Positions 5,783-58,800 of a stretch of DNA of 64,000 nucleotides are shown here, in pieces. The notes below the pieces were generated by a model. The model saw only the letters and a list, made by a program, of their open reading frames with translations, was not told the origin of the DNA and did not search any database. Made by a program: the position numbers and the translations under genes. Positions within the stretch are counted from its first letter, which is position 1, and every line of letters starts with the position of its first letter. The DNA comes from Candidatus Nealsonbacteria bacterium DGGOD1a (GTDB taxonomy: Bacteria; Patescibacteriota; Minisyncoccia; Minisyncoccales; UBA5738). The stretch spans positions 326,222-390,221 of the forward strand of contig CP092821.1 in NCBI GenBank assembly GCA_022530585.1. Direction: 5' to 3'.

Positions 5783-5989
5783 ACTAAAAATACCGCGGAC
5801 GCGGTATGCTTTAGTGACGCTTGGTTACAGCTTGGATAGCCGTGACAGGGCCAAGGCCCTCCAAACGTCAATTTAAGCATATGATAAAATCGGACATTGT
5901 CAAGCTTGCTTGAGCATTGAACGATGCCATCTATGGCGTTATAGAGCGGGTTTGATATAATCTAATCAATAATAAAATAACCAAAAACT

Positions 5990-38555: not shown

Positions 38556-38676
38556 AACTAAAAATTTCTAATTTTAAATTATTAATTTCTATTAAATTTA
38601 TAATTTTCAGTGATTGTTTTTTTGAAAATTGTTTCATTGAAAATTCAATGAAAATTGGAAATTATGAATTTGGATT

Positions 38677-39588: not shown

Positions 39589-39713
39589 TTTTCAATTTTC
39601 AAACCTCCAATTTTCAATAAATGTTTCAAATTCCAATGTTACAAACAAAACGCAAATCAGCATTCCGTTTGGTTCATTGAAACATTGAAAATTCATTGAA
39701 AATTGAAAATTGG
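39589..39713. repeat. AT-rich extended hairpin built from AATTTTCAA / TTGAAAATT motif arrays
   Basis: CCAATTTTCAAT (39607-39618) pairs with ATTGAAAATTGG (39702-39713). AATGTTTCAA pairs with TTGAAACATT. A direct copy of the right arm lies at 38620-38668. Confidence 0.75.
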
Positions 39714-39734
39714 TAATTAAAAATTTAAGTTTCT

Positions 39735-40979
39735 ATGTTTTCAAATCAAACCAAAATTAAATCGGTGAAGGCGCGCGAGATTCTTGATTCGCGCGGGAAT
39801 CCGACTCTCGAAGTCTGCGTTGCGAACGGCGCGGGCGTGTTTTGCGCGGGCGTCCCGTCGGGCGCGTCCACGGGCGTTTATGAAGCGGCGGAATTGCGCG
39901 ACGGGGATTTGGCCCGCTACGGCGGAAAAGGCGTTTTAAAAGCGGTTGCCAATGTTAATTCAATCATCAATCCGGAATTGATCGGCATGGATTGCCGCCG
40001 GCAACAGGAAATCGATCAAAAAATGCGGGAGATTGACGCCACGCCGAACAAGGTTCGTTTGGGCGCCAACGCGATGTGCGGAGTGTCGCTGGCGATCGCG
40101 CGCGCCGCGGCGGGAAGCCAAAAAACGCCGCTCTATCGCTATGTCGCCAAGCTGGCAAAAAACAAAAATGTCGCTTTGCCCAAGCCGTGTTTCAATGTGA
40201 TCAACGGCGGGGCGCACGCGGGCGGCGATCTGGATTTTCAGGAATTTATGATCGTGCCGCAAGCCGGAAAATTTATCGATAACCTGCGGATTGCCAGCGA
40301 GGTTTATCATCAATTGAAAAAAGACCTTGTCGCCAAATACGGCAAATCAAGCGCGAATCTGGGTGATGAGGGCGGGTTCGCGCCGCCGCTGAACGCGCCC
40401 AAAGAGGCGCTGGATTGTTTGTGCGCGGCGATTGCGATCGTTCAGCCGCCGGTGCCGGTGAAATTCATTATCGATGTCGCGTCGAGCCAATTTTTCAATT
40501 CCGGAAAATACAATACGCGGATGGGGAGTTTTGACGGCGCCAATTTGGCCGGTTTCTACGCGCGATTAATATCGCAGTATCCGCAAATCATCGGACTGGA
40601 GGACCCGTTCGCGGAGGATGATTGGGCGGGATGGCAGAGATTTTCATTCACGGGAATGGTGATTGGCGATGATTTGTTGGTGACCAATCCGCAAAGAATG
40701 AAAGAGGCCAAAGAGAAAAAGGCGTGCAACGCGATGATCTTGAAAATAAACCAGATCGGCACGGTGAGCGAAGCGCTGGAAGCCGCGGCGCTGGCGAAAA
40801 ACTACGGCTGGAAGATGATCGTTTCCCATCGGAGCGGCGAAACCAACGATGATTTTATCGCGGATTTCGCGGTCGGCATTGGCGCGGATTTTATCAAAAC
40901 CGGCGCGCCGGCCCGCGGCGAGCGGCTGGCCAAATATAACCGCCTGGCCAAGATCGAAGAAGAAATAAATGAAAAATAA
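39735..40979 (+). CDS. eno: Enolase
   Basis: AREILDSRGNPTLEV, SHRSGETND, KTGAPARGERLAKYN. Confidence 0.9.
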   Translation: MFSNQTKIKSVKAREILDSRGNPTLEVCVANGAGVFCAGVPSGASTGVYEAAELRDGDLARYGGKGVLKAVANVNSIINPELIGMDCRRQQEIDQKMREIDATPNKVRLGANAMCGVSLAIARAAAGSQKTPLYRYVAKLAKNKNVALPKPCFNVINGGAHAGGDLDFQEFMIVPQAGKFIDNLRIASEVYHQLKKDLVAKYGKSSANLGDEGGFAPPLNAPKEALDCLCAAIAIVQPPVPVKFIIDVASSQFFNSGKYNTRMGSFDGANLAGFYARLISQYPQIIGLEDPFAEDDWAGWQRFSFTGMVIGDDLLVTNPQRMKEAKEKKACNAMILKINQIGTVSEALEAAALAKNYGWKMIVSHRSGETNDDFIADFAVGIGADFIKTGAPARGERLAKYNRLAKIEEEINEK

Positions 40980-41961
40980 TTTTGAGCGGGGCGAGATCGC
41001 GATCTATAAATCGCCGGACAATCAAATAGAACTGAAAATAAAATTACGGCAGGAAACCGTTTGGTTATCTCAAGCGCAAATTGCGTCGCTTTTTGGAATA
41101 CAGCGACCGGCGATTACAAAACATCTTAATAATATCTTTAGAACGGGCGAATTAAAGGAAAAATCAGTATGTTCCATTTTGGAACATACTGCCGCGGACG
41201 GGAAAAAGTACAAAACCGCTTTTTATAATCTTGATGCGGTAATTTCGGTTGGGTATCGCGTTAATTCAAAGCGGGCGACTCAATTCCGCGTTTGGGCCAC
41301 AAAAACACTGAAGAGTTATTTAATACAAGGATACATGATTAATGAAAAGCGGCTGTCGGAAGTCAAAGAAAAATTTGAACAATTGTCAAACACGGTTGCT
41401 TTTCTCCGCGAAAAATCAAAAAAAGAATTATTAATCGGCGAGGCGGACAAAATTTTGAATTTGCTGGCTGATTACGCGAAGACTCTGACTATTCTTGACG
41501 AATATGACCGCGGGAAAATCAAACAAATCAAGGGAAAACGAGGCGAATTTACGCTAACTTACGAATTAAGCTTGAATATTATCGTCCAGATTAAACAAGA
41601 ATTAACGGCAAAAAAAGAGATTGGCGGCTTGTTTGGCGCCCAAAGAGAACATTACTTCGAAGGGATTATAAAAGGAATTTACCAAAGCTTCGGCGGCAAT
41701 GAATTATATCCGGAATTGGAAATAAAAGCCGCGAATTTGCTTTATATGGTCATAAAAGACCATCCGTTTTCCGACGGCAATAAGCGTATCGCTTCGTTCC
41801 TGTTTGTTTATTTTCTGGATAAAAATAACGCGCTTTACCGCCAAACCGGCGAGAAAAAAATTAATGACAACGCGCTGGCCGCCTTGGCATTATTGATTGC
41901 CGAAAGCAATACCAAAGAAAAAGACCAAATGATCGCCTTAATCACGCAGTTGATCAAATAA
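40969..41961 (+). CDS. RhuM-family N-terminal domain fused to Fic/DOC domain
   Basis: RhuM-like AVISVGYRVNSKRATQFRVWATKTL. Fic motif HPFSDGNKRIASFLF. Overlaps the eno stop by 11 nt. Lower GC than its neighbours. Confidence 0.8.
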   Translation: MKNNFERGEIAIYKSPDNQIELKIKLRQETVWLSQAQIASLFGIQRPAITKHLNNIFRTGELKEKSVCSILEHTAADGKKYKTAFYNLDAVISVGYRVNSKRATQFRVWATKTLKSYLIQGYMINEKRLSEVKEKFEQLSNTVAFLREKSKKELLIGEADKILNLLADYAKTLTILDEYDRGKIKQIKGKRGEFTLTYELSLNIIVQIKQELTAKKEIGGLFGAQREHYFEGIIKGIYQSFGGNELYPELEIKAANLLYMVIKDHPFSDGNKRIASFLFVYFLDKNNALYRQTGEKKINDNALAALALLIAESNTKEKDQMIALITQLIK

Positions 41962-41973
41962 TGTTAAAATAAC

Positions 41974-42051
41974 TTCAGCGCGCCGGCGCGGGGCGAGCGG
42001 CTGGCAAAATACAACCGTTTGGCAAAAATAGACGCGGAATTGGCAATATAA
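41974..42051 (+). pseudogene. Relic 3' end of an enolase gene
   Basis: Translates to ..SAPARGERLAKYNRLAKIDAELAI*. 17 of 18 aligned codons encode the same residues as eno 40905-40958, with 10 nt differences (9 synonymous). Confidence 0.8.
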
Positions 42052-42059
42052 CTATTTTC

Positions 42060-42368
42060 ATGCAATCAATCAACAAATCAATTATCTCACTATCAATACT
42101 TGGGCTTATAATTACCGGGCCGGTTTTTGCTTGCGTGACCGTTGGCGCGGATCAGGAAAAATCTTTATTGAGTACTTTATTGGGGATAGTGGCTTTTATT
42201 TTGTACGCGGCCCTTCTGTTTTCCGGGCCGATTTTCTATTCTTTGTATGTTAAGCGCGGCGGGACGAAAAGGTGGTTGATAACATTGTGGGGATGGTCGT
42301 TTATAATGATAATTTTGGCAATGTTGATTAAGGGAATATTCAGTTTAATGCTTTGCGCCTCGATTTAG
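42060..42368 (+). CDS. Hypothetical small membrane protein
   Basis: 102 aa, 3 hydrophobic helices. Confidence 0.5.
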   Translation: MQSINKSIISLSILGLIITGPVFACVTVGADQEKSLLSTLLGIVAFILYAALLFSGPIFYSLYVKRGGTKRWLITLWGWSFIMIILAMLIKGIFSLMLCASI

Positions 42369-42381
42369 TCAAATTAGATTT

Positions 42382-43341
42382 ATGAAAATGTTCCAATTAA
42401 AATTATTATTTTTGGGTTTGCTGTTCATGGGAACGGTAAACGCGCAAGAGAATATTTCGATATCCATGGCCGAGCGTAGCTTGGCTACCCCAATAATTTC
42501 GATTGCCAATATAATAGTTACTATTTTGATTTTGGCGGCGTTGCCCGGGCTTGTTTTGCCGATGATTGAATATTTCAAGCTCGCTCTGAAAAAATCCGTA
42601 TACAAAATTGTTTTTTTGCGGCACGGAGAATCAATATGGAACAAGGAAAACCGGTTTACCGGCTGGGTTGATGTTGGATTGTCGGAGAGGGGCGTTTGGG
42701 AGGCAAGCGAAGCGGGAAAAATTCTCAAAAACGAGGGATATGTTTTTGATTTGGCCCATACTTCGGTTTTGAAGCGCGCCGCCGACACCACCGCGATTGT
42801 TTTGGAACAAATGGGGTTGCGAAACATTGAAACAAAGTTCGCGTGGGAGTTAAACGAGCGCCATTATGGCGGCTTGCAAGGATTGAACAAGGCCGAAATG
42901 GCGCGAAAGTACGGCGAGGAGCAAGTGCGTATCTGGCGCCGGAGTTTTTCCGTGCGGCCTCCGGAAATGGACGAAACGGATTATCGAAAGCAAAACGATT
43001 TGGAGATTTTTAAAGCCGTGCCGATCTATCAAATGCCCCGGACCGAGTCGCTGGCCGACACTTGCGCGCGCGCGGTTGGTTATTGGCAAAAAGAAATCGC
43101 GCCGGCGATAAAGGGCGGGAAAAATGTTTTAATTTCGGCGCATGGCAACAGCTTGCGCGCGATCATCAAACATTTGGACAACATTGGCGACAAGGAAATT
43201 TCGGAGTTAAACATTCCCACGGGCGCGCCGCTGGTCTATGAGCTGGACGATGATTTAAAACCGATAAAACATTATTATTTGGGCGATCAAAAAGAAATCG
43301 CGCGAAAAATCGCCGCGGTCAAAAACCAATACAAAACATAA
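42382..43341 (+). CDS. gpmA: 2,3-bisphosphoglycerate-dependent phosphoglycerate mutase (true start may be ATG 42562)
   Basis: KIVFLRHGESIWNKENRFTGW, SAHGNSLRA. The first 60 codons are hydrophobic and atypical for GpmA. Confidence 0.85.
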   Translation: MKMFQLKLLFLGLLFMGTVNAQENISISMAERSLATPIISIANIIVTILILAALPGLVLPMIEYFKLALKKSVYKIVFLRHGESIWNKENRFTGWVDVGLSERGVWEASEAGKILKNEGYVFDLAHTSVLKRAADTTAIVLEQMGLRNIETKFAWELNERHYGGLQGLNKAEMARKYGEEQVRIWRRSFSVRPPEMDETDYRKQNDLEIFKAVPIYQMPRTESLADTCARAVGYWQKEIAPAIKGGKNVLISAHGNSLRAIIKHLDNIGDKEISELNIPTGAPLVYELDDDLKPIKHYYLGDQKEIARKIAAVKNQYKT

Positions 43342-43345
43342 ATAT

Positions 43346-43508
43346 CTTTGAATCGCGAAACGCTTTGCATTTGGGGTCTATCCCTTGCGTTTGTCCCGAG
43401 GCTTTCGCGAGGGATAATCGCAAGGGTTAGACCCCTTCAAATCATTTGCATTTAACGGTTTTAGAGTAGGTATCGTCTGGCCTGGGAGTAAAGTTTCGCA
43501 ATTCAAAG
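43346..43508. repeat. Nested palindromic intergenic element, family A, copy 2
   Basis: TIRs CTTTGAATCGCGAAAC (43346-43361) and GTTTCGCAATTCAAAG (43493-43508). The core matches 1275-1401 and carries an extra ~35-nt insert. Confidence 0.85.
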
Positions 43509-43542
43509 TATAAAGACAGAAATAAAAATCGGCGTTTAGTTT

Positions 43543-43574
43543 ACATTCTCACATTCTCAAGAATGTGAGAATGT
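43543..43574. promoter_or_regulatory. Perfect 15-bp-arm palindrome upstream of the radical SAM gene
   Basis: ACATTCTCACATTCT-CA-AGAATGTGAGAATGT. Could be an operator or a hairpin. Confidence 0.4.
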
Positions 43575-43666
43575 CCGTAATCGCGTCAGGGATAAAAATC
43601 GCGAAGGTATGGCTTTTGCAAAATGCTAGCGCCGGATATCGCGCCCATTGTCAGTATATCAATAAA

Positions 43667-44752
43667 ATGGCTAATATTTTTAAGATCGGAAAATTGAGGT
43701 TGTGGCAGGAGTATTGCAAGCGGGAGACCGTCGAGCATAAACTGACCTATTTGTTTTGGGAGTGCACTTTGCGGTGCAATTTGAGATGCCGGCATTGCGG
43801 CAGTTCTTGCGGCGATGTGGTGCCGCCGGGTGAATTAACGACCGAGGAGATCAAGAAAGCTTTTGGCGATATCGCCAAGAATTTTGACGCGAAAAAGATT
43901 ATGGTGGCCGTGACCGGCGGCGAAGCGCTTTTGCGGCCCGATCTTTTTGAGGTGATGAAATACGCCAACGGACTGGGTTTTCCATGGGGTATGGTGACCA
44001 ACGGCACATTGATTACTCCGGAAATCGTTGAAAAAATGAAAGACGCGGGAATGTCATCGGTATCGGTGAGTTTGGACGGTTTGGAGGCCAACCATACATG
44101 GCAAAGGGTTGGCATTGACACTTTCAAGCGCGCCACCGCGGGAATCAGGATGCTGGCGGCGGCAAAATTTCCGATCGTGGAGGCGATTACTTGCGTAAAC
44201 AAGCGCAATATCAAAGAGCTTGATCAGATTTGCGCGCTTTGCAAGGAATTGGGCGTTACCAATTGGCGAATGTTTTCTATCAGTCCGGTCGGCCGCGCCA
44301 AAGAATGCGCCGAAATGTTTCTGGACGCCAAGGAATGGGAATATCTGCTTGATTATATCGCCCGAAAACGAAAAGTCGAGAAAAAATTGAAGGTCAGTTT
44401 TTGCGAAGAGGGATTTTTCGGCCCGGAATTGGAAGGTACAATGCGCGACCAGTTTTTCTTTTGCTGGGCGGGTATTAAAGTTGGCAGTATTTTGTATAAT
44501 GGAGATATTGGCGCGTGTCCGATATTGCCGCGCGGACAAACCAAGCAGGGAAATATCCGCACTGACGATTTTGCCAAGGTTTGGAACCAGAAATTCCAGC
44601 TTTTCCGCGATCGCGACTGGCGCAAAACCGGCAAATGCGAAAATTGCGTCTGGTGGGATTTTTGCCAAGGAAACAGCCTGCACTTATGGGATTTCAACCA
44701 AAAAAAGCTGAACCTGTGCCATATGGAGATGTTTGGCAAGAAAAAATTATGA
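43667..44752 (+). CDS. Radical SAM / SPASM-domain enzyme
   Basis: CNLRCRHC (CxxxCxxC) cluster motif and C-terminal Cys-rich SPASM region (CWAG..GACP..CENCVWWDFCQG). Start set at MANIFKIG. Confidence 0.8.
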   Translation: MANIFKIGKLRLWQEYCKRETVEHKLTYLFWECTLRCNLRCRHCGSSCGDVVPPGELTTEEIKKAFGDIAKNFDAKKIMVAVTGGEALLRPDLFEVMKYANGLGFPWGMVTNGTLITPEIVEKMKDAGMSSVSVSLDGLEANHTWQRVGIDTFKRATAGIRMLAAAKFPIVEAITCVNKRNIKELDQICALCKELGVTNWRMFSISPVGRAKECAEMFLDAKEWEYLLDYIARKRKVEKKLKVSFCEEGFFGPELEGTMRDQFFFCWAGIKVGSILYNGDIGACPILPRGQTKQGNIRTDDFAKVWNQKFQLFRDRDWRKTGKCENCVWWDFCQGNSLHLWDFNQKKLNLCHMEMFGKKKL

Positions 44753-45075
44753 AACCATTTTACAAAATAAAATATTTATTTTTTCGCCTGACGAGTTTTT
44801 TGCTTCTATCATTGTTTTTTGGCAAAGCAAAGGCGCAAGACTCTTCGTTGTATGGTGTATGGGTACCCCCTCCATCGCCGGCAGAAAGGATTCATGAAAT
44901 TACTAATTATTTGGCTGGTATCGCGATAATTGCGATGTTAATTGTTATTCCAATTCTTGGTTTTAGATGGTTGGTTTTGAAAAAACAGGTAAATAAAAAG
45001 TTGCTTTGCGCTTTGGCGATAATAATTTTTATTATTCTTGAGAAAATTTTGTTTTTTTTCGTGACAAACCCGTAA
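44749..45075 (+). CDS. Hypothetical small secreted/membrane protein
   Basis: ATGA overlap with the radical SAM stop. Signal peptide (..FFGKAKAQ) plus 2 TM helices. Confidence 0.5.
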   Translation: MKPFYKIKYLFFRLTSFLLLSLFFGKAKAQDSSLYGVWVPPPSPAERIHEITNYLAGIAIIAMLIVIPILGFRWLVLKKQVNKKLLCALAIIIFIILEKILFFFVTNP

Positions 45076-45223
45076 AACTAGTTTGATTTGTTCCAATTTC
45101 GCTTTCTTAAAAGTTGGTGAATGTCAAAACAATGAAGTTGATTATAGATGTGGCCATAACTAATGGGGGGTTGCGTAAATAAATTAATTTGGTAAACTTA
45201 ATGGTATTAAATAACAAAATAAT

Positions 45224-45406
45224 ATGGCAAAATATCAAGTGAACAAAGATAAATGTTTGGGATGCTTTATTTGCACCGTGAACTGTCCGGCCGGGATGGC
45301 GCAAGACGATGACGCCAAAGCCAAGGTGGTGGATTCCGACGCGGTGGAAACTTGCGGCGGCGAGAGCGTTTGCCCGCACGGCGTGATCGAAAAAACGGAA
45401 GAGTAA
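45224..45406 (+). CDS. Small 4Fe-4S ferredoxin
   Basis: CLGCFICTVNCP plus distal C..CP; 60 aa. Confidence 0.8.
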   Translation: MAKYQVNKDKCLGCFICTVNCPAGMAQDDDAKAKVVDSDAVETCGGESVCPHGVIEKTEE

Positions 45407-45703: not shown

Positions 45704-48700
45704 ATGGCAAAAGAAAAAGCAAATAAAAATTTTAATGACTTTAAAAATATTTTTCCACTATCAAAAACTCGAAAGTTTTCGTTAATTCCTGTTTTAAACA
45801 TAGAGCAAGAAAGGCGAATATGCATAGAAAAAGGATATTCAAATAAAGATGAAATTACAAGACAAAACAGAGTTGAAAAATTTTTTAAAGATAATAATCA
45901 AGATATTTTTAATGTTGATATTGAAAGAAAAAAACGATATCAAGCGCTTAAGTATTATTTAACTGAATTGCATAAGCTCTTTATTAAGGATTCTTTGGAA
46001 ATGATTAAAAGAAACAACGATATTAATTTTTCTAATCTTTTTGAATTATATATAGGATATGAAGCTTCTAATAATGAAAAAAAAAGAAAGGTTATAGGAA
46101 AAATTAACAATGAAAAGGTTAGATTGGCTAAATATTTTGGAGATAAAGAAGGCAAGGGCGGGGTATTCCAAAAAATAGCGAAAAGATATTACGAATATCT
46201 GGAAAAAAATTTAAGGAATAATGAAAAAATTAAGGGTGGCGATGATAAGCAGAAATTTGCCGATGGGACAAAAAATATTTTGATCTCCCAAAATGTTTTG
46301 ATGATTTTAAGTAAAAAGATAAATGATGGCAGTATTCGGGAAAAAAAAGAGAAAAATCAAGGTAAAGAAAATGAATATGCAATTAAATTCAAAACAAAAG
46401 AAAATAAAGATCAGGAAACAAATTTAGTTGAATATTTTGGTGGATGGTCTACATATTTTAAGAACTTTAATGAGATCAGGGGCAATCTTTATAAAGATGA
46501 AGGAAGAAGACAAGGTGATGAGGGGGATGATGAAACGGGAGAGAAGCTTGTAAAGGCAAATTCAGGACAATTAACAACGCGGATTTTAGACGAAAATTTC
46601 GAGATTTTTGTAAAAAACGCATTTTTGGCAGAAAAAAATAAAATTGACTTAGGTTTAACGGATTATCAAAAGAAGAATGTGATTGCTAATCATAATATTT
46701 TTGAGCCCGATTATTATGCAAATTGCTTATTGCAAGCTGACATAAACACCTATAACGCGGCCATTGCTGAACTTAATAAACTGTTTAACGAGAAAAAAGG
46801 AAAAAAGAAGATTGATTATCTTGAACCATTGTATAAGCAGTTATTATTATCCGATGGCCTTGAGGAGTTTGAAAATGGATATATCAATGAATTTAACAAC
46901 GATTCTGATCTAATTGAGGGATTGGAAAAATTTTATAGGCACGCTCGCGAAAAATTATCCATAGTTGGTAATTTCTTAAAGGATGGTCTAATTAACGGTG
47001 ATTTAGATTCCATACTGCTTAAGGAAAATCAAACGCATTATTATTGTAATATTTTTTTTGGATCGTGGTCGTATATAAGAGATTTGTATTATGAACAAAA
47101 CGGTATTGGTATAAAAAATAGACCCGATAAGAAAAGTGAATTAAAAGATAAGGATGGAAGAACAAAAATAGAGATTTCTTTGGCAGAGATAAAATCAATT
47201 TTAGATGGAATTAGCAAGGAGAGATTTCAAGAAGACATTAAAAATGCAATAGAGAACGCGAAACAGAGGTCAAGATCCGTATTTGATCTTCTAGGTGTTC
47301 ACGGCAGCGAAAAAATTTATAAAGAAGATAAAAGCAATTTTGAAAACTTCGTTTTGTTTTTTAAATTTTATTTTGATTCATTGTTGAATGGTAGAAATTT
47401 GTTGACTGAAAAAGAAAAGAAAGATAAGGAAAAAATTACCCAAATAAAATCATTCTTGCAAAAGTCAAAAACCGAAGGAGAGCGAGTAGATGAATTATTG
47501 ATGTCAAAATTTTCAGAAGCAAATTATTTGGCAAGCATTAACGCAAGTATTAATAAAAAACAAGAGGAATTCGAAAACGAATTTAAAGATTTAAGGCAAT
47601 CAATCAATCTAAAAAAGGGATTATCTCGAAGGAAAGATTTTGAATGCAAACAGGCGATAAACGATTATTGCGTTAGAATTTCCGATATTAACGGTTTTTT
47701 TGCTTTGTTTTCAATTCCAGAGGGTATTGTGGCTGACGGCGATAACGGAATAATCCAAAAGTTTAAAGATAAAAACGAAATAAATGCGCTTTTTGGTGCA
47801 ATCAGAAATTATATTACAAAGAAAGATGCCGGAAATGAAAAAATCAAGGTAACATTCGACAATCCAACATTTTTGGGTGGTTGGGCATATAAAACCACTG
47901 ATTATTGTTGCCGAATTTTGAAGAAACAAGATAATTATTATTTATTAATCATTGGCAAAGAAAAAAGTAAAAATAAAAACGATGTTAGCAAGCAAATAAA
48001 TGTTAATAGTCTCACCGGTTATCAAATGATGGATTATTATCAGCAAAAAGGCCAGACTATTTTTGGATCTGTTTATACGGGAAAATTTGATTCAAAATAT
48101 GGAGATGACAGGACGAAATTGAAGAATTCTGAATTTATAAAAAGAATAGAGCAAATTATTGATGGTCTTAATAGAGAATTTTGTAATGTGCAAAAAGTTA
48201 AAATGCATTTGGAAAGTTTAAAAGAAATGATTAGGGTTGGAAAGTTTAATTTTGGTATAACCGCATCTGATTTTGGCAAAGCTTTTCTTGGGAAAACTGA
48301 AAAATATTACCATCAATATAAAAATAAGAAAGGTATTCTTAATAAAGAAGATGTAATTATCAGTATTTTAAAAGAATTGTTTGGTAGTGAGATGTTTGAT
48401 TATGGACATGAAAAAGATTATTTAGTCAATCGGGTAAAAGAAATAATGAAAGAAGATGCCCCCAAAACGAGTTTTTTAGGGTCTGATTTATTGGCATATG
48501 AAGTTACTAAACTTGAGCCTTATTATTATAAAAATAACTTTAGGGAGATGGATTTCAAAAAAGACGGGATAGATGAAAAATTATTAGATAAAGAATTATT
48601 TATTTTCCAAATTTATTGCAAAGATTTTTCTTTGAAGAGGGGAAGTATAATTCCGAATCCAAAGAAAGATTTAAACACGCTTGAATTTGAGGAACTTTTC

Positions 48701-50176
48701 TCGATAGAGAATAGAGAAAAACCATTGTTTAGATTAGCTGGACAAGCCGAAGTTTTTTTCTATCCTCAAAAAGAAAGCTATAAGGTTGAGCGGTGGTCAA
48801 AAGATGACTTAAAAAATCCGAAAACCGATAAAATTCCGTATAAAAAAAGGCGATACGCGGAAAATCAAATTATTTTTCATATCCCAATAGTTGTGAATAA
48901 TATCAGCAATGGCGGCAATGTTGATAGGAAAATACACGAGTATATTCAACAAAGAAACGATGTAAAGATGTTGGGCATTGATCGTGGAGAAAGGGAGCTT
49001 GCTTATTGTTGCTTGCTTGATGGGAAAGGAGCGATTTGCGGCGATGTGAAATCAATGAATATTGTTGGCTCTAATATCAAAAATGGGATAAAACAGCCGA
49101 TAAACTACCAAAAGAAATTAGATATTAGAGAAAAGGAAAGATTAATGGCCAGACGATCTTGGACCAAGATTGAAAGCATCAAAGATATTAAGCGCGGCTA
49201 TGACGCGAATTTAATGCACGAAATTACGACGCTTATGGCTCAAGAGAACGCGCTGATTTGTTTGGAAGAATTAAATCGTGGATTTAAAAAAGATAGAACA
49301 AGGATCGAAAAGAGTATATACCAGCAATTTGAAAACGATTTAGTTAACAAATTAAATTATTTGGTGATTGAAAAATCACCTCAAGGAGTTAGAAACGCTT
49401 TGCAACTAACACCTCCAAATAGAGCTCAAAAGACTTGGGGTAATCAAATGGGCGCAATTTTTTATACAGATGCAAGATATACATCAAAAACTTGCCCTAA
49501 TTGTGGTTTTAGGCATAGAAGCGTTGGAGGACTGAAAACATCCCAAGAAATAAAGAATAAAATTGCCGCAAAAGAGCTTAGAATATCCTACGATAAAAAA
49601 TACGATAGATTTAGGATTGAGTATCATTGGAATTATGAATTTAAACAGAACAGTAAGCAATGCGAATTTGCAAGCAAAGATTTATACAATGGAGAAATGG
49701 AATATATTTTTTCAGATGTGAACCGAAGTCATTGGAATAATAATGATTTAAAGGATATTTTTAAAGATTACCTCATTGAGAATGAAGATTTGTTTTTGCT
49801 TGTAAAGAATGAGCCGAAATTCCGTTATGTTGATTTTGGTAAAGTATTTGTTAGTCTTACATGGATAAGGCATTCAGTTAAAGAGGGCGATCAAGAATAT
49901 GATGAAATTTCTTGTCCGAAATGCCATTTTTGGACAAGATCTCCAAAAGTTCAAAAAATTAAAGATGGAGATGCAAACGGGGCTTACAATATCGCCAGAA
50001 AAGGATTGATCATTTTGGATAAAATCAGGAGCGAAAAATTAAGAAATAAAATGAATACAAAAAACGGGATTAAGAGCAAGGGCTTAAAAATAAATCTTAA
50101 AGAATGGGATGAAGCAACTTATTCTCAATGGGATAGGAAAGATTGGGGCGAGAGCGATAATAAAAGAGGTTTATAA
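45704..50176 (+). CDS. cas12a: Type V-A CRISPR effector Cas12a (Cpf1), 1490 aa
   Basis: Family-typical motifs FPLSKTRKFSLIP, WSTYFKNFNEIRGNLY, FDNPTFLGGW, LFIFQIYCKDFS, IIFHIPI. Split RuvC: GIDRGE (D1093), ICLEELNRGFK (E1188), DGDANGAYNIARKG (D1423). No HNH. cas4-cas1-cas2 and a Cas12a-type repeat array lie downstream. Confidence 0.95.
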   Translation: MAKEKANKNFNDFKNIFPLSKTRKFSLIPVLNIEQERRICIEKGYSNKDEITRQNRVEKFFKDNNQDIFNVDIERKKRYQALKYYLTELHKLFIKDSLEMIKRNNDINFSNLFELYIGYEASNNEKKRKVIGKINNEKVRLAKYFGDKEGKGGVFQKIAKRYYEYLEKNLRNNEKIKGGDDKQKFADGTKNILISQNVLMILSKKINDGSIREKKEKNQGKENEYAIKFKTKENKDQETNLVEYFGGWSTYFKNFNEIRGNLYKDEGRRQGDEGDDETGEKLVKANSGQLTTRILDENFEIFVKNAFLAEKNKIDLGLTDYQKKNVIANHNIFEPDYYANCLLQADINTYNAAIAELNKLFNEKKGKKKIDYLEPLYKQLLLSDGLEEFENGYINEFNNDSDLIEGLEKFYRHAREKLSIVGNFLKDGLINGDLDSILLKENQTHYYCNIFFGSWSYIRDLYYEQNGIGIKNRPDKKSELKDKDGRTKIEISLAEIKSILDGISKERFQEDIKNAIENAKQRSRSVFDLLGVHGSEKIYKEDKSNFENFVLFFKFYFDSLLNGRNLLTEKEKKDKEKITQIKSFLQKSKTEGERVDELLMSKFSEANYLASINASINKKQEEFENEFKDLRQSINLKKGLSRRKDFECKQAINDYCVRISDINGFFALFSIPEGIVADGDNGIIQKFKDKNEINALFGAIRNYITKKDAGNEKIKVTFDNPTFLGGWAYKTTDYCCRILKKQDNYYLLIIGKEKSKNKNDVSKQINVNSLTGYQMMDYYQQKGQTIFGSVYTGKFDSKYGDDRTKLKNSEFIKRIEQIIDGLNREFCNVQKVKMHLESLKEMIRVGKFNFGITASDFGKAFLGKTEKYYHQYKNKKGILNKEDVIISILKELFGSEMFDYGHEKDYLVNRVKEIMKEDAPKTSFLGSDLLAYEVTKLEPYYYKNNFREMDFKKDGIDEKLLDKELFIFQIYCKDFSLKRGSIIPNPKKDLNTLEFEELFSIENREKPLFRLAGQAEVFFYPQKESYKVERWSKDDLKNPKTDKIPYKKRRYAENQIIFHIPIVVNNISNGGNVDRKIHEYIQQRNDVKMLGIDRGERELAYCCLLDGKGAICGDVKSMNIVGSNIKNGIKQPINYQKKLDIREKERLMARRSWTKIESIKDIKRGYDANLMHEITTLMAQENALICLEELNRGFKKDRTRIEKSIYQQFENDLVNKLNYLVIEKSPQGVRNALQLTPPNRAQKTWGNQMGAIFYTDARYTSKTCPNCGFRHRSVGGLKTSQEIKNKIAAKELRISYDKKYDRFRIEYHWNYEFKQNSKQCEFASKDLYNGEMEYIFSDVNRSHWNNNDLKDIFKDYLIENEDLFLLVKNEPKFRYVDFGKVFVSLTWIRHSVKEGDQEYDEISCPKCHFWTRSPKVQKIKDGDANGAYNIARKGLIILDKIRSEKLRNKMNTKNGIKSKGLKINLKEWDEATYSQWDRKDWGESDNKRGL

Positions 50177-50183
50177 AAATTCA

Positions 50184-50723
50184 ATGGAGGATTATATTCA
50201 GATTTCCAAGATAAATGATTTTGTGTTTTGTCCGTATTCGATTTATTTGCATTCGGTATACGAGAATTTCAACGCCAAAACCTATCATCGGACGGCGCAG
50301 ACCGTGGGCAAGATCGCGCACAGGCCGGTTGATGGCGGAACATACACGACCAGCGCGCGAGTGTTGCAGGGAATGGAAGTTTGTTGCGAGCGGCTGGGGA
50401 TTATGGGTAAAATCGACACATTTGATGCCGAAAGCGGATTGCTGGTGGAGCGCAAATACAAGATCAAAAAGATTTTTGACGGTTATCGCTACCAGCTCTA
50501 CGCGCAAATGTTTTGTTTGCGGGAAATGGGTTATGAAGTGAAATCGCTGGCGATCCAATCGCTGGCGGATAACAAGCGGTATAAAATTTCTTTGCCGGAC
50601 GCACAAGAAACCGCGAAGTTTGAAGAATTGATTGAAGCAATGAAGAATTACCGGCCGAGTCCGCCGGAGAATAAAAATCCGGCAAAATGCGCGCAATGCG
50701 TTTATAAGCCGCTGTGCCATTAA
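50184..50723 (+). CDS. cas4: Cas4 (RecB-like nuclease with 4-Cys Fe-S cluster)
   Basis: N-terminal FCPYS Cys, GKIDTF..LVERKYK (D..ExK), QLYAQM, C-terminal CAQCVYKPLC. ATG is 8 nt after the cas12a stop. Confidence 0.9.
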   Translation: MEDYIQISKINDFVFCPYSIYLHSVYENFNAKTYHRTAQTVGKIAHRPVDGGTYTTSARVLQGMEVCCERLGIMGKIDTFDAESGLLVERKYKIKKIFDGYRYQLYAQMFCLREMGYEVKSLAIQSLADNKRYKISLPDAQETAKFEELIEAMKNYRPSPPENKNPAKCAQCVYKPLCH

Positions 50724-50737
50724 AGAAATTTTCGCGA

Positions 50738-50773
50738 GGGACTAACCCTCGTGATTACTCGAGGGATAGACCC
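50738..50773. repeat. Family A hairpin module inserted between cas4 and cas1
   Basis: GGGACTAACCCTCGTGATTACTCGAGGGATAGACCC is about 85% identical by eye to 8273-8306. Confidence 0.8.
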
Positions 50774-50783
50774 CCGCGAAAAT

Positions 50784-51734
50784 ATGTTGAGTTTGCCTGA
50801 TTTCAAAGAAAAACAATTGTTGTTTGTGAGCGCCAAGAATGCCGAGATTGAAAAGATCAAGTTTTTGAATGACAATATCTGCTTGTCAAAGGACGGAAAA
50901 ATCGTCAACCGGATTTCGTGCCACAAGGTTTTCGCGCTGTTTTTGATCGGCGATTGTTCGCTTACCAGCGTGTTGGTCCGCAATTGCGCCGATTACGGCG
51001 TGTCGATTTTTCTTTTAAAAAATAATTTCTTGAATTATGCGCGGTTGTTGGCGCAAGCGGACGGGAATTATTTGTTGCGCGAAAGGCAATACGCGGCGAC
51101 CGAAGAGCAAGAGCTGGCGGCGGCAAAAATTTTGGTGGCGAATAAAATTTCAAACCAGATTTGCTTGCTGGAAAGTTCGGACGGTAAAGACGCGGCGTTA
51201 TCTTTGGAAAAAATAAAGGCAAAAATCAAAAACGCGCGAAACGGCAAGGATTTGCTTGGATTGGAAGGCGCGGCGGGCAAATTTTTCTTTCAAAGTTATT
51301 TCAAAAATTTGGAATGGAAACGGCGTTTGCCGCGGGCAAAGATTGATATTCCGAATTATTTGATGGATATGGGCTATACGATGCTGTTTAATTTTGTTGA
51401 GGCAATGCTGGGGATATACGGGTTTGATGTCTATCGCGGGTTTTACCACAAGCTGTTTTTTCAGCGCAAATCGCTGGCGTGCGATTTGATGGAGCCGTTT
51501 CGGTGCGTGATTGATAAGCAGATCATGAAATCCCATAATTTGGGGCAGATAAAGGCCAATGATTTCAAATTGAGCAAAGGCGTCTATGGCTTGGGATTTG
51601 AAGAGCAGAAGAAATACGCGGAGATTTTCGCGCAGGCGATTATGGATCGCAGAGAAGACATTTTTTGCTACGCGCGCGATTATTACTATTTTACGATTAA
51701 CGGCGCGGAATTTCCGGCATTTAAGATGAAATGA
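50784..51734 (+). CDS. cas1: Cas1 integrase
   Basis: LLGLEGAAGKFFF (Glu), GFYH (His), LACDLMEPFR (Asp/Glu). The ATG at 50784 is preferred over GTG 50751, which lies inside the palindromic element. Confidence 0.9.
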   Translation: MLSLPDFKEKQLLFVSAKNAEIEKIKFLNDNICLSKDGKIVNRISCHKVFALFLIGDCSLTSVLVRNCADYGVSIFLLKNNFLNYARLLAQADGNYLLRERQYAATEEQELAAAKILVANKISNQICLLESSDGKDAALSLEKIKAKIKNARNGKDLLGLEGAAGKFFFQSYFKNLEWKRRLPRAKIDIPNYLMDMGYTMLFNFVEAMLGIYGFDVYRGFYHKLFFQRKSLACDLMEPFRCVIDKQIMKSHNLGQIKANDFKLSKGVYGLGFEEQKKYAEIFAQAIMDRREDIFCYARDYYYFTINGAEFPAFKMK

Positions 51735-51735
51735 T

Positions 51736-52014
51736 ATGTTTATAGTTTCTTATGATTTCGAAGATACGCGCCGCCGGACGAAATTCTCGAATCTTTTGAA
51801 AAAATACGGCCGGCGATTGCAATACTCGGTTTTTGAGATAAAAAACAGCCAGCGGATATTGGATAACATCCAAAAAGAGATTGATATGAAATATAAGCCG
51901 TACTTTACGAAAAACGACAGTATTGTTATAATTTATGTGTGCGAGGCGTGCAAAGCCAAAGTCAAGCGATATGGTTATGCCGCCAACGAAGAAAAGGAAG
52001 TGGTGTTCTTCTAA
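51736..52014 (+). CDS. cas2: Cas2
   Basis: 92 aa. MFIVSYDFEDTRRRTKFSNLLKKYGRRLQYSVFE is the canonical Cas2 N-terminus. Starts 1 nt after the cas1 stop. Confidence 0.9.
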   Translation: MFIVSYDFEDTRRRTKFSNLLKKYGRRLQYSVFEIKNSQRILDNIQKEIDMKYKPYFTKNDSIVIIYVCEACKAKVKRYGYAANEEKEVVFF

Positions 52015-52201
52015 AATTGAATAGATACAAAACAAAAAGTAGCAAATTGGTGGAAATTGCAGTGTATCTATTAGAAATCTAGCTTTTTGAGGTTATTAAA
52101 CCTCGGTCTTTATGGATTTTCCAACTTTAACCGGCTTTAAGTCGTTAATCAAATTTTATCGGTTAATCGCATCTTTCAAGCCGGTTAAAGCTAATCCAGC
52201 T
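52015..52201 (+). promoter_or_regulatory. CRISPR leader
   Basis: 187-nt AT-rich non-coding stretch between cas2 and repeat 1. Contains hairpin GAGGTT-ATTA-AACCTC and an 11-bp inverted repeat, TTAACCGGCTT (52127-52137) with AAGCCGGTTAA (52178-52188), ending 13 nt before repeat 1. Confidence 0.65.
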
Positions 52202-55200
52202 CTCTAATAGGCATATTCAATTTCTACTTTTGTAGATAACAATGTGAAATTGATTTATTTGAACTCTAATAGGCATATTCAATTTCTACTTTTGTAGATT
52301 GACGGGTAAGTTCGCCATTCCTTTAATACTCTAATAGGCATATTCAATTTCTACTTTTGTAGATCTCCAACGCTTCACCTCCGAAATAAGCTCTAATAGG
52401 CATATTCAATTTCTACTTTTGTAGATTCCGCGCAATAATTTAGCTTCCAAATCTCTAATAGGCATATTCAATTTCTACTTTTGTAGATGTGGGAAATAGG
52501 GTTCTGCTGCCGCGGGACTCTAATAGGCATATTCAATTTCTACTTTTGTAGATATTACACAGCACGAAGATAAACACGCCTCTAATAGGCATATTCAATT
52601 TCTACTTTTGTAGATAAAAGTCAAGTATCTGTTTTTTATTTTCTCTAATAGGCATATTCAATTTCTACTTTTGTAGATGAAAGGGTTGAGCGATGATGGA
52701 TCAACTCTAATAGGCATATTCAATTTCTACTTTTGTAGATCTATGAATTGAAATACTTGTGGGGACTCTAATAGGCATATTCAATTTCTACTTTTGTAGA
52801 TGGAAAGCGCGATGATGTGGAACATACTCTAATAGGCATATTCAATTTCTACTTTTGTAGATTCCTCCGGTGTCAACTCTTTGTCCCATCTCTAATAGGC
52901 ATATTCAATTTCTACTTTTGTAGATATGAAAAATTTGCGTGGAGTGCGAGGACTCTAATAGGCATATTCAATTTCTACTTTTGTAGATGGTTAACGCTTT
53001 TTTGCCGCGGAACCTCTAATAGGCATATTCAATTTCTACTTTTGTAGATCTTCTCAACGGTAACGGCAGTTTCTACTCTAATAGGCATATTCAATTTCTA
53101 CTTTTGTAGATACGACGCCATCGGATTTATTCATAACTCTAATAGGCATATTCAATTTCTACTTTTGTAGATATGAACAGGTTGAAGCCTGTCCCTCGCT
53201 CTAATAGGCATATTCAATTTCTACTTTTGTAGATATGCCGACAATCAGATTCCGTTTGAGCTCTAATAGGCATATTCAATTTCTACTTTTGTAGATGAAA
53301 TCGGGTAACTCAACAAAAGCGTCTCTAATAGGCATATTCAATTTCTACTTTTGTAGATTTATTGATTTTGTTTTAGCGTGGATTCTCTAATAGGCATATT
53401 CAATTTCTACTTTTGTAGATTCAAGAGCCATCTTGTAATTATTTTTTACTCTAATAGGCATATTCAATTTCTACTTTTGTAGATGTAAAAAATTGTGCCA
53501 ATGGTGGCGTCTCTAATAGGCATATTCAATTTCTACTTTTGTAGATGTTGTCGGAGCTTTCCTGCCTTCTGACTCTAATAGGCATATTCAATTTCTACTT
53601 TTGTAGATCCAAGCGGCGAGCGCACAAGACCTTGAGTCTCTAATAGGCATATTCAATTTCTACTTTTGTAGATAAAGAGCGCACAGCGATAAGATGTTGT
53701 CTCTAATAGGCATATTCAATTTCTACTTTTGTAGATCTCAAAAAGCGGGGGATGTCGTTCAACTCTAATAGGCATATTCAATTTCTACTTTTGTAGATAA
53801 CACTAATCCCGTGCTTACCGGAGCGACTCTAATAGGCATATTCAATTTCTACTTTTGTAGATATCTGATAATTTGTTCATTTTGTTTTGACTCTAATAGG
53901 CATATTCAATTTCTACTTTTGTAGATAATACGAAGCCGCGATTGCCCCGATACTCTAATAGGCATATTCAATTTCTACTTTTGTAGATTCTATTATTGGA
54001 GGGGTGGTTGATAACTCTAATAGGCATATTCAATTTCTACTTTTGTAGATTCGCTGGTTTAGTTAGCCAGAGATTGACTCTAATAGGCATATTCAATTTC
54101 TACTTTTGTAGATTGCAATAATCGTTATTAACAATTATTCTCTAATAGGCATATTCAATTTCTACTTTTGTAGATTCTATGTGTGCGAACGGGGTATTGT
54201 CTCTAATAGGCATATTCAATTTCTACTTTTGTAGATTAAAAATCTTCTTCTTGTTCCGCTTTCTCTCTAATAGGCATATTCAATTTCTACTTTTGTAGAT
54301 GAATCCCGCTGTTCTTGATTTCTGTGTCTCTAATAGGCATATTCAATTTCTACTTTTGTAGATTTGGCCAATACAACTGATGAATGGTTTCTCTAATAGG
54401 CATATTCAATTTCTACTTTTGTAGATTTTGCCCCGCCGGATACCACCCATTTCCTCTAATAGGCATATTCAATTTCTACTTTTGTAGATTGTACAAACCA
54501 AATAAAGAGGAAATAACTCTAATAGGCATATTCAATTTCTACTTTTGTAGATTTCGTGTGTCGCGAATTTCGAATGTTCTCTAATAGGCATATTCAATTT
54601 CTACTTTTGTAGATATTGACCCGCACTTTTCTTACGGCGAGCTCTAATAGGCATATTCAATTTCTACTTTTGTAGATTCTCCCAAGAGCAAATAATAATG
54701 ATAACTCTAATAGGCATATTCAATTTCTACTTTTGTAGATCGAAGCCTTCCGAAAATTCTATTGGACTCTAATAGGCATATTCAATTTCTACTTTTGTAG
54801 ATTCGCCGATACAATACCACCATATTTTCTCTAATAGGCATATTCAATTTCTACTTTTGTAGATCTTAATTCGCTTACTCTTGCCATTACTCTAATAGGC
54901 ATATTCAATTTCTACTTTTGTAGATTCAAAACAGAATAAAAAAATAATCAACTCTAATAGGCATATTCAATTTCTACTTTTGTAGATGGCGACAGCATAA
55001 TGGCCTTCACGCTCTCTAATAGGCATATTCAATTTCTACTTTTGTAGATACTCCGGCAACCCTATGCCCCGAATTCTCTAATAGGCATATTCAATTTCTA
55101 CTTTTGTAGATGGCGGGGATGGCGGTTATGTGTGCGCTCTAATAGGCATATTCAATTTCTACTTTTGTAGATTTATTCTTTCCGGCGATTGCCACCAACT

Positions 55201-55295
55201 CTAATAGGCATATTCAATTTCTACTTTTGTAGATAAAAAAGTATTCACTTTGTCCTGGGCTCTAATAGGCATATTCAATTTCTACTTTTGTAGAT
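52202..55295 (+). CRISPR. Type V-A CRISPR array: 50 identical 36-nt repeats, 49 spacers of 25-29 nt
   Basis: Repeat is CTCTAATAGGCATATTCAATTTCTACTTTTGTAGAT, counted line by line. The 3' end forms the UCUAC-UUUU-GUAGA crRNA hairpin. Same strand as the cas genes. Confidence 0.98.
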
Positions 55296-55324
55296 TTTTT
55301 TCGTTTTGAATGGGGACTTCAAAT

Positions 55325-55841: not shown

Positions 55842-58800
55842 ATGAAAAAATTTATGAACAATATTTCAAAAACGATATTTGGAAAAGCGGGGAGATCGAT
55901 TCGCAAAGCGACGGTTGTGTTTTTAACATTTGCAACCATTGCGCAGCCCTTGTCGCCGCTGATTGTTTTGGCCGAGGAAACGGCTATCAGCCCGGAATCA
56001 ATTCCGGCCGCGGCTAATGCCGTGGAAGTAATTGAAAACGCGCTCGTTTTGGCAACTCCCGAAATCCCCGGCAACGCAGACTCGAGCGAAAAATCGGAAA
56101 CAAAACCCGCAATCAAAACCGCGCCGGATTCAGACAATCAAACACCCCGGATAATCATCAATTCAATCTCGGATACTTCGTCGTTTTCCGAAACTTTGGA
56201 ATCAAATTCAAGCGAACAATCCCCCAAAACTAAAGTCGCGGCGGGCGCCGGAACAGAAATGAGCGCGATGAACGCCAGCGCCGCGGGAATAAATTCGGTA
56301 AACGGGTTATCGGTTTCGGTATCAAATCCCGCGACAACAAAAAACCAACCCGACATCGACCAGAATACCGGCGCTTTAACATATAGCTTTCCCATTACAG
56401 TGCCGCCGGGCCGGAGCGGAATGCAACCCAACCTTGCCTTAACCTATAATAGTTCCAATAACGAACAAGGGAGCATTTTCGGCTACGGCTGGTCAATCAA
56501 TATTCCCTACATTCAGCGGCTCAACAAATTTGGCCTTAATGAAATGTATCATAACACCGGCAGCTCGGAATTTTTTTACTCGTCGATAGACGGCGAGATT
56601 ACCAGCGCGCTTGATAATTCCAATTTATACTTTGCAAGAACCGAAAATGGAGACTTCAATAAATATCTGTTAATGGACAACTATTGGATAATGCACGGGA
56701 AGGACGGTACGCAGTATAAATTCGGCGATTACGACGCCTCCCGGCAATACGATCCCGGCAATACCGATCATATCTACAAGTGGATGCTGAAAGAAATCCG
56801 CGACACAAACAATAACTTCATAACCTTTTCATATTATAAAGACGCCAACCAAATTTACCCGGAATCAATCAAATACACGGGCAACGGATCCACTGATGGA
56901 ATTTTTGAAGTTTCTTTCATGAAATCTTGGCGTCCAGATAACGGGATTGTTTCATATGATGCCGGATTTCCCGTTACTTCGAATTACTACATTACTGAAA
57001 TTGACACTAAGGTAAACGGCAATTGGGCGATGAAATACTTTCTCAATTACAATCTTAATCCCACCAACACCGGAGCGCTTTTGAATTCCATTGGAACGCA
57101 GGCGCAAGCGGCCGACGGCGTAATAACCGTGCTGCCGCTCGAACAATTCAGCTACCAAAACAACGCCCCCGGCTGGGCGCAAACCGCAACAACAACTCTG
57201 CCGTCTATCAGCTACAAACCGGGACCCGGATTTTCCTTTGCCACCGGCGACCATCAGCAGTTCATCGATCTGAACGGCGACGGTTTGCCCGAATTCATTG
57301 ATTTCGCTTTTTTATATCACGGGGATGGAATCATGACTTCCGATTCCTGTGACTCGCAATACGGTTCCGGCCAAGGATATTCACTTTTAAACGCCGTGGC
57401 CGCCGTGAACCGAAGAAATTACTGGGACAGCGGCGACACCACATGGAAACTTCCACAGGATCAAAACAGATTTTTTGAACGCGCCTGCCTTGACAGCGAT
57501 ATGAATGTGCAATTTGCCGATTTAAACGGCGACAATTTGCCCGACCTTATAAAAAGTTATATTGATTACAAATATTCATCGCCGGAAACTTTGCGAAGCG
57601 AGGTTTATTTGAACAATGGCAATGGCTGGACATTAAGCCCGAATTGGAAACTACCGTCATATACGCTGGGAAGCCAAGGTTATGCGACCACGCAAATTAT
57701 TTTTGGCGATGTCAACGGCGACAATTTGCCCGATTTGATTGAGACCGCCGCATGCTCGGGCTACCATTCCGGATCAAAATGCAGCGTAAACAATTCTCTC
57801 GTTTATCTTAATAATAATGGCTTGGGCTGGGGCCGGAACTACCAATGGGCATTCGGCTCCGCGCCCGGATTCGCATCTTTCCAATTTGTTGATCTGAACG
57901 GCGATGGCGCGCTCGAATTGGTCAGCAGCGCCTATGGAGACGCCGGCGCGCAAATCAAAGCCTATCGACCCGGATCAGATTGGTACCAAGGATGGGCGGA
58001 ATTTAATTCATACTCTATAAATTACGGTAAAGTTAACACCCCATATAGCGGCAGCATCCTTCCGCGCACGACCTTCGCGGATTGGAATAATGACAATCGT
58101 TTTGACGCAGTGGCGTATTTCATTAATAATAATCCTGCCAACAATGTAATCAACGGATACAAAAACGGCATATCGAATTTATCGCCGGCTTCCTTAACTT
58201 TACCGATCAATAATAGCGTGTGCGGCGCCAACAATTCATTCTGCGTCCCGCAATTTTCCGATACCAATGGCGACGGCTTGCAAGATCTTGTTCAAATAAA
58301 CAGCAATGTGACCACCCAAGGAATTGATTTCCGCGGCGCGGTTTTCGCCAACATTGCCCAAAAACAAGATTTGTTAAGCAAGGTATCTTATCCGCAGGGA
58401 GGGGAGACTGCAATCGCTTACAAAACTGCGACGCAATACGCGAACAACAAATCGCCTTACCAGCTGTTTACGGTTTCGCAAATCACAAACAATGATAACG
58501 CCGGCAATTTCGATAGCCACACTTATGATTATTCGGGGGCGTCGTATTATTTTGATTCGCCGATGAACCGCAAGTTTGCCGGATTTAAGATAATTACTCA
58601 AACCGATGCGGCCGGAAATGTTGCGAAAACCTATTTTAACACCGGAAACGGCACCGATTCAGCCAACGGCCAATACGCCGACAGCTATTACAAAATTGGT
58701 AAAGTTTATCGTACCGAGCAATACGACGGCGCGGGAAATCTTTACGCGGCAACAATCAATAAATGGGACTCGTCGCAACGAAATATTAATTCAAATTTTG

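Follow-up and report, generated by a model that had tools for sequence, protein, structure and literature searches.

The 64,000-nt stretch analysed here (hereafter the window; Candidatus Nealsonbacteria bacterium DGGOD1a, GenBank contig CP092821.1, positions 326,222 to 390,221 of the forward strand) contains a glycolytic operon in which an open reading frame (ORF) for a RhuM-Doc protein of 330 amino acids (aa) stands between the enolase gene eno and the phosphoglycerate mutase gene pgam (Table 1). The ORF is bracketed by a 62-nt direct repeat of the eno 3' end (81% identity, spacing 1075 nt), the second copy of which lies downstream of RhuM-Doc as a relic. The local alignment score of this repeat reached z ~25 against shuffled flanks and, the CRISPR array and protein-repeat families aside, no repeat of such kind occurs elsewhere in the window. 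An assembly artefact is excluded, as nine contigs that derive from independent samples and from independent assemblers carry the eno-RhuM-relic arrangement.

Table 1. Features of the eno-pgam locus in window coordinates, with the evidence or sequence relationship noted for each.
Feature	Position	Strand	Remarks
eno	39735-40979	+	Pfam Enolase_N and Enolase_C matches
Native eno body	39735-40902	+	98-100% nt identity with the closest relative, L086, over 39855-40910
Imported replacement eno tail, now the functional eno end	40903-40979	+	Repeat copy 1 at 40903-40964; encodes ..APARGERLAKYNRLAKIEEEINEK and stop
RhuM-Doc ORF, 330 aa, PADLOC PDC-S23	40969-41961	+	Pfam RhuM and Fic matches
Short cassette 3' flank (TGTTAAAATAACTTCA)	41962-41977	+	Homologous to the flank in L087 (TGTTAAGATAATTTTAAT)
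Relic of the native eno tail	41978-42051	+	Repeat copy 2 at 41978-42039; start codon absent
AT-rich lineage-specific spacer	42052-42602	+	No counterpart in L086 (84-nt spacer there)
pgam (phosphoglycerate mutase) core	42603-43341	+	NCBIfam dPGM equivalog match

Within the repeat, the eno-frame codons at 40905-40958 and 41980-42033 both encode APARGERLAKYNRLAKI(E/D), and 10 of their 54 nt differ, nine synonymously and the remaining one changing E to D. The probability of at least nine synonymous differences in ten was 3e-5 with both copies drifting neutrally and 1.7e-3 with one drifting. After the shared codons the relic reads DAELAI and a stop codon, ending at 42051. The RhuM-Doc ATG lies inside eno, ahead of the eno stop codon, and the resulting 11-nt overlap of start and stop suggests that translation of the two genes may be coupled. 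A first-pass annotation made from the letters alone had described the duplicated codons, their differences, the AELAI ending and the overlapping RhuM-Fic ORF; all of these sequence statements hold, the last by ORF coordinates and Pfam. It had further called the insert AT-richer, and the GC content does fall from ~0.55 in eno to ~0.39 in the insert, but the region beyond the relic (42000-42600) is likewise AT-rich and qualifies this contrast.

Comparison with related genomes (contigs given L numbers here) revealed empty sites and the probable origin of both eno ends. The closest eno found (P0001 on L086; 96% aa and 95% nt identity) is followed by an 84-nt spacer and pgam, with the RhuM gene absent, and in L006 (90% aa identity) and L011 pgam directly follows eno with no insert. 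Between the window and the L086 eno there are 14 differences over ~1050 nt (39855-40910) and then 15 within 62 nt (40913-40974), a jump in divergence that coincides with the start of the repeat. The relic matches the functional L086 tail at 52 of 55 nt, including the first 40 without a difference, and shares the L086 synonymous sites at which the active tail differs; the active tail departs from L086 at eight of 54 nt, all synonymous. A distance table of the 51 nt encoding APARGERLAKYNRLAKI at 18 eno loci placed the relic nearest to L086 and L135 (three differences) and the active tail nearest to L010, a different lineage (5/51 differences). Since the relic matches the L086 tail, it is what remains of the native 3' end of an L086-like eno, whereas the active tail, nearest to L010, is foreign and came in together with the RhuM gene; and as nine of the ten differences are synonymous, the two tails diverged as functional genes in separate lineages. 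Insertion, an imported tail, a native relic and transfer between lineages are thus all well supported by the sequence comparisons, in agreement with the earlier suggestion that a cassette had entered with a diverged eno end from another lineage, which is borne out by the breakpoint at the repeat, the L086-type relic and the L010-like active tail. Uninterrupted eno genes in relatives had also been predicted and exist in L086, L006 and L011, but none has the expected ending ..KIDAELAI. The last six relic codons match no relative, all of which end ..IEEE(L/I).., and are either lineage-specific or decayed.

The first 120 nt of the window eno (39738-39854) differ from L086 at ~40 positions, the following 1050 nt being 98-100% identical, and the gene upstream of eno in L086 is not the one found in the window; this divergence marks a second recombination breakpoint at the eno 5' end. 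An eno tail ending in NEK was considered as a sure mark of a former RhuM insertion and rejected, as L134 has such a tail followed by pgam 6 nt later and no remnant.

The same architecture was identified in a second species represented by L087, L088, and L089, from other hydrocarbon or methanogenic samples, where eno with a replacement tail precedes RhuM-Doc, and ~20 nt of homologous flank lead on to a relic that begins with the same eno codon. RhuM-Doc of L087 shares 90-98% nt identity with that of the window (dS 0.17) and the protein 94% aa identity versus 80% for eno, with the baseline genes ftsZ, trxB, and mnmA at 65-74% nt identity. The L087 locus is a mosaic, with the eno 5' part and trxB nearest to other lineages (L135 and L016) and the eno 3' third and pgam nearest to the window and L086 group (86-92%); the pgam core of the window shares 97% nt identity with L086 and 92% with L087. 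Such mosaic flanks, with the cassette travelling together with core-gene sequence, indicate homologous recombination. The same locus shows a decay series in other relatives, with full-length RhuM-Doc genes in L008 and L160, truncated ones of 155-160 aa in L009, L107, L108, and L138-140, and a 165-nt RhuM remnant in L135-137. The cassette flank TAATG(T/C)TAA is kept in L008, and L160 reads TGATGCTAA at this position. In L008, and probably L160, a shorter relic begins at the K/IEEEL boundary (~22 nt long in L008), so at least two junction classes exist at eno. P0126, the RhuM-Doc that comes next in similarity (69% identity), is not eno-linked, and the eno-linked genes therefore form a lineage of their own; each set of identical RhuM-Doc proteins is confined to a single genomic context, which argues against a promiscuous transposon. 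A metagenome scan with RhuM-Doc returned mostly distant relatives, and an alignment scan of IMG/VR viral contigs found no relative, leaving phage carriage without evidence. Relatives show the eno-pgam spacer to be a hot spot for insertions, with an SPFH/Band-7 gene in L007 (5338-6165) and L008 (6293-7123), and in L010 (5291-7048) a DNA methyltransferase directly follows eno.

The RhuM-Doc protein matched Pfam Virulence_RhuM (PF13310; E 2.5e-24, 86.4 bits against a cut-off of 33.7) and, at residues 200-283, Pfam Fic (PF02661; E 5.5e-11, 43.6 bits against a cut-off of 24), and its residues 7-330 aligned with positions 4-324 of 327 in the PADLOC PDC-S23 model PDLC04965 (E 6.8e-120). The Doc motif is HxFx(D/N)(A/G)NKR, as opposed to the Fic motif HxFx(D/E)GNGRxxR. 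The earlier label of a Fic-domain protein stands in so far as the family scores above its threshold, but the motif HPFSDGNKR at residues 265-273 is of the Doc type, so that a kinase-type toxin is likelier than an AMPylator. Residues H265, F267, D269, G270, N271, K272, and R273 are invariant across 32 homologues, and a profile of these homologues matched the Doc-family Protein Data Bank (PDB) chain 9vzc_A (E 1.5e-4); the match to TIGR01550 (DOC_P1) fell below its cut-off (32.1 vs 38.65 bits). A dN/dS of 0.17 versus L087 indicated purifying selection. For the protein, the most likely role is that of a Doc-type (kinase) toxin or an abortive-infection effector, with an N-terminal RhuM/winged-helix domain as a putative sensor. 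The partner antitoxin that the first-pass annotation had thought worth seeking did not emerge, no antitoxin-like gene being present among the neighbors, namely eno, the relic, and a 102-aa membrane ORF without a Pfam, NCBIfam, or PADLOC match. As a conserved partner this membrane ORF is not supported, since neither the 109-aa ORF in the corresponding position of L087 nor the pgam N-terminal extension is similar to it.

Frequent fusion to DOC is known for RhuM-like domains, for which a role as toxins in restriction-modification (R-M) loci or multi-layer defense has been proposed (PMC3710099), and RhuM-like proteins are enriched beside type I R-M and inversion loci (PMC9881135). The immediate context in the window, trxB-eno-RhuM-Doc-pgam, is not an R-M operon or a defense island; a methyltransferase and restriction endonuclease pair lies ~5 kb upstream and Cas12a ~4 kb downstream, neither being adjacent. 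A literature search found no paper on PDC-S23, a PADLOC candidate only, and enolase, RhuM, and Fic go unmentioned in the DGGOD1a genome paper. Scanning the surroundings of the locus for Rfam families, tRNAs, and terminators gave nothing relevant, with no + strand terminator-like site from the RhuM-Doc stop (41961) to pgam and a few weak + strand matches inside the RhuM-Doc ORF. The absence of a terminator, taken with the start/stop overlap, suggests that expression of RhuM-Doc may be coupled to eno.

The explanation we consider probable is that a one-gene cassette without a recombinase of its own inserted into a native L086-like eno and spread by homologous recombination. The cassette (40903-41977) would consist of ~75 nt of a foreign eno 3' end, the RhuM-Doc gene, and a 16-nt flank, and would have entered at codon A392 of the L086-like enolase. 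The foreign tail would complete eno and keep the glycolytic gene intact, RhuM-Doc would be translated from within the eno operon, and the displaced native tail (41978-42051) would persist as an untranslated relic. A RhuM-Doc lineage tied to the eno locus would then move among Nealsonbacteria-like genomes via homologous recombination, using conserved eno as the left homology arm and the eno-derived relic or pgam as the right one. The event itself may have been a single Campbell-type crossover between the cassette-borne and native eno tails or, alternatively, a looped heteroduplex with uptake of donor DNA already carrying both copies. We infer this recombination route, as well as the function of the RhuM-Doc protein, from sequence comparison.

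No integrase or transposase family was found within ~6 kb in the window or ~5 kb in L087, and there were no inverted repeats at the cassette ends or in 41940-42060 and no tRNA. A transposon or insertion sequence was therefore rejected, with neither a transposase nor terminal inverted repeats and with repeats of 36-75 nt that are non-identical and variable in length, as was an integron gene cassette, for which neither the inverted repeat in 41940-42060 nor a nearby integrase was present. The cassette end TAATGTTAAAAT was considered as an XerD half-site and judged a chance resemblance, the second arm and spacer being absent.

Several points weigh against a cassette spread by homologous recombination. 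Both import boundaries fall within one 10-nt GC-rich palindromic stretch, GCGCGCCGGC, common to both copies. One crossover is the simplest explanation for such a shared boundary, and either this or a site-specific event would account for it better than would two random RecA crossovers; RecA also makes poor use of homology arms that are 38-75 nt long and 81% identical. The window and L087 modules (dS ~0.17) are more diverged than the window and L086 eno, and a more complicated history, e.g., loss in L086 or repeated conversion, is possible. The primary event creating the tail duplication is not reconstructable and the spacer at 42052-42602 is unaccounted for. Regarding the protein, expression and activity of RhuM-Doc are predicted only, and the AlphaFold2 model built from a 32-sequence alignment was poor (predicted local distance difference test score 57.6), with only the winged-helix-like residues 31-110 confident.

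In a different explanation, the locus is the remnant of an integrase-bearing element of the e14/icd or cis-mobilizable element (CIME) type, whose attP carried the eno 3' end and which has since shrunk to its RhuM-Doc cargo or is mobilized in trans. The repeats indeed resemble attL/attR, and the target at a gene 3' end with a replacement tail recalls e14 and icd-icdC (PMC13626634); the right junctions of the window and L087 are identical and both import boundaries share the one palindrome. We nevertheless regard such a remnant as unlikely: an integrase is absent from all eno-linked loci, both the full-length and the decayed ones, exactly one ORF always lies between the repeats, the junction class of L008 and probably L160 is a second one at eno, and other RhuM-Doc loci duplicate different genes, including 5' ends, with no common core.

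Quite improbable is an ancestral eno-RhuM-relic arrangement in the clade from which L086, L006, and L011 lost the cassette by tail-tail recombination. Both RhuM remnants and NEK tails occur widely in the clade, and in L008 the similar identities of eno (79%) and RhuM-Doc (76%) are compatible with vertical descent there. The empty sites of close relatives speak against ancestry, which the first-pass annotation had named as a competing possibility, and a deletion between the repeats leaves a hybrid tail, whereas in L086 the tail is of the relic type from the first site that varies onward, and 42052-42602 is missing from L086 too. Were the relic old and neutral, its differences from the active copy would not be almost solely synonymous, and the higher identity between the window and L087 for RhuM-Doc (94% aa) than for eno (80%) shows horizontal movement. 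Scarcely credible, finally, is a functional downstream copy, acting as a regulatory RNA, as a leader of the gene that follows, or as a reserve eno end for reversible switching. Its retention in two lineages, its position 9 nt upstream of the 102-aa ORF, and the equivalent relic of L141, which forms a leader ORF of 16 codons whose end lies 11 nt upstream of the RhuM ATG, would suit such roles. Against them, the copy has no start codon and lies outside any called gene, contrary to the possibility raised earlier that it belongs to a real expressed gene; two stop codons separate it from the upstream RhuM-Doc frame, and in the ORF listing no + strand ORF of at least 30 aa crosses it, two 33-aa ORFs on the - strand overlapping it. 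Furthermore, it has no Rfam match or terminator-like site, its last six codons deviate from the ..IEEEL.. ending that is conserved in eno, and in L008 it is shortened to ~22 nt.

The other RhuM-Doc loci retrieved for this analysis were scanned for repeats between their 5' and 3' flanks, with control ORFs taken through the same procedure at a score of at least 50. Four further loci carried host-gene-end repeats around RhuM-Doc, three of the four host genes being housekeeping genes. These were a 38-nt repeat of the holB 5' end in L141 (three differences, all synonymous; its relic yields the leader ORF mentioned above), a 36-nt repeat of the secD/F 3' end on the opposite strand in L103 (35/36 identical), a 55-nt repeat of the 5' end of an Amidohydro_2 gene in L112 (51/55 identical), and a 38-nt repeat of the 5' end of a TPR gene in L092, where the RhuM ORF is fused to the first seven codons of the host gene. 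At the score threshold, 5/30 RhuM ORFs were positive versus 4/510 control ORFs (Fisher p = 4e-5; small sample), and two of the four control hits were RhuM-adjacent or repeats resembling repetitive extragenic palindromes (REP-like). Where the repeats are coding, differences between the copies were mostly synonymous. At L126, L120, L122, and L035 the flanking repeats were left out of the count, since they consist of heptamer arrays in tandem, RhuM paralogues in tandem, or intergenic REP-like repeats and are not target duplications.

It is possible, but on balance doubtful, that RhuM-Doc (PDC-S23) represents a class of recombinase-less "gene-end hitchhiker" cassettes in candidate-phyla bacteria. 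Each lineage would capture the terminal 35-75 nt of a neighboring conserved housekeeping gene; the captured end would repair the gene on insertion and plug the cassette into the translation signals of the host operon, and together with the displaced relic it would give homology for entering the same gene in other species. The generality of gene-end duplication around RhuM-Doc is offered as a hypothesis. Another RhuM-Doc, at 2501-3502 of L151, is convergent with pyruvate kinase, the 3' ends of the two genes sharing 23 nt, and has a second Fic_N-Fic gene beside it; no duplication was detected in the flanks of this locus. In L035 (Dehalococcoidales), a GIY-YIG-like ORF (5290-5925) is situated ~150 nt past the eno end and flanked by 143-nt near-identical REP-like repeats (..GTCATTGCGAGGGCGAAGCC..).

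Downstream of the relic, the AT-rich spacer contains the 102-aa membrane ORF at 42060-42368 and, from 42382, a stretch of 73 aa that extends the N terminus of pgam; at neither the nt nor the protein level is the spacer similar to the 109-aa ORF of L087. Over 42382-42612 the ancestral pgam start codon was lost (GTA TAC AAA ATT versus ATG.. in relatives), the ORF start now being at 42382, and the extension gives this glycolytic enzyme, cytoplasmic in all other respects, what looks like a membrane segment or signal peptide. Between pgam and a 60-aa ferredoxin (45224-45406), the region 43346-45208 encodes a radical SAM/SPASM protein (43565-44752) and a small membrane ORF; as L086, L006, L087, and L008 have the ferredoxin directly after pgam, this region constitutes a second lineage-specific operon insertion. 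Upstream of eno, trxB is flanked by a 43-nt direct repeat (38628-38670 and 39676-39718; 81% identity) rich in TTGAAAATTG, a motif that also fills the eno-pgam spacer of L086, and this may be a promoter-like intergenic repeat or another insertion-made duplication. Further downstream, 45704-55300 contains a Cas12a gene (1490 aa; REC1 and RuvC_1), further ORFs to ~51734, and a CRISPR array of ~50 x 36-nt repeats (..AATTTCTACTTTTGTAGAT). The DGGOD1a Cas12a/CRISPR locus with cas4, cas1, and cas2 has already been reported (bioRxiv 10.1101/2022.04.20.488981). A 2566-aa ORF at 55842-63542 has internal repeats of ~38 nt encoding ..DLNGDGLP.. (57258-58288).

The locus provides a base-by-base case of how a very small symbiont genome may gain an accessory toxin or defense gene in an essential glycolytic operon without damage to it, with RhuM-Doc then moving between species together with pieces of flanking core genes. 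Were the wider pattern true, it would constitute a route of gene mobility needing no integrase or transposase and would explain the spread of single-gene defense candidates in candidate-phyla bacteria. A relic gene end differing from the active end mainly at synonymous sites offers a search signature for such insertions, and PDC-S23 is marked as a candidate worth experiment.

Among known systems, the Doc toxin of Phd-Doc phosphorylates EF-Tu, and the window protein resembles it in a C-terminal domain scoring above the Fic threshold with the motif HxFxD(A/G)NKR; it differs in that a Phd-like antitoxin gene is missing here and the Doc domain is fused to an N-terminal RhuM. RhuM proteins of R-M loci and defense islands also differ in setting, the window gene being wedged into the glycolytic operon trxB-eno-pgam. 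CIMEs and Xer-dependent integrative mobile elements exploiting Xer (IMEXs) are integrase-less elements mobilized in trans, and cassettes transfer by homologous or homology-facilitated illegitimate recombination in transformation. The RhuM-Doc cassette is like these in being small, recombinase-less, and flanked by direct repeats, with mosaic flanks on transfer. Unlike in CIMEs and IMEXs, no att/dif-like core is common to the loci and the repeats are target-specific pieces of host genes. The window and L087 join at GCGC(GC)CGG, L008 and probably L160 at K/IEEEL, and the other targets have no core in common.

The closest parallel is prophage e14 in the icd gene of Escherichia coli, where an element likewise occupies the 3' end of a central-metabolism gene, supplies a replacement end with mostly synonymous differences, and leaves the original end downstream as a pseudogene (icdC). 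Recombination between the two icd copies restores a chimeric gene (PMC13626634). Direct repeats of the target 3' end, an element-supplied active copy, a downstream relic, and empty sites in relatives were all found at eno as well. However, the ~15-kb prophage e14 encodes its integrase and excises upon SOS induction, whereas the insert at eno is a single gene of 1 kb, with one ORF between the repeats, no e14-type integrase or excisionase, and no recombinase Pfam family within ~6 kb in the window or ~5 kb in L087. The architecture is therefore one known from e14 and icd, and the difference here is that a single gene without an integrase occupies it.

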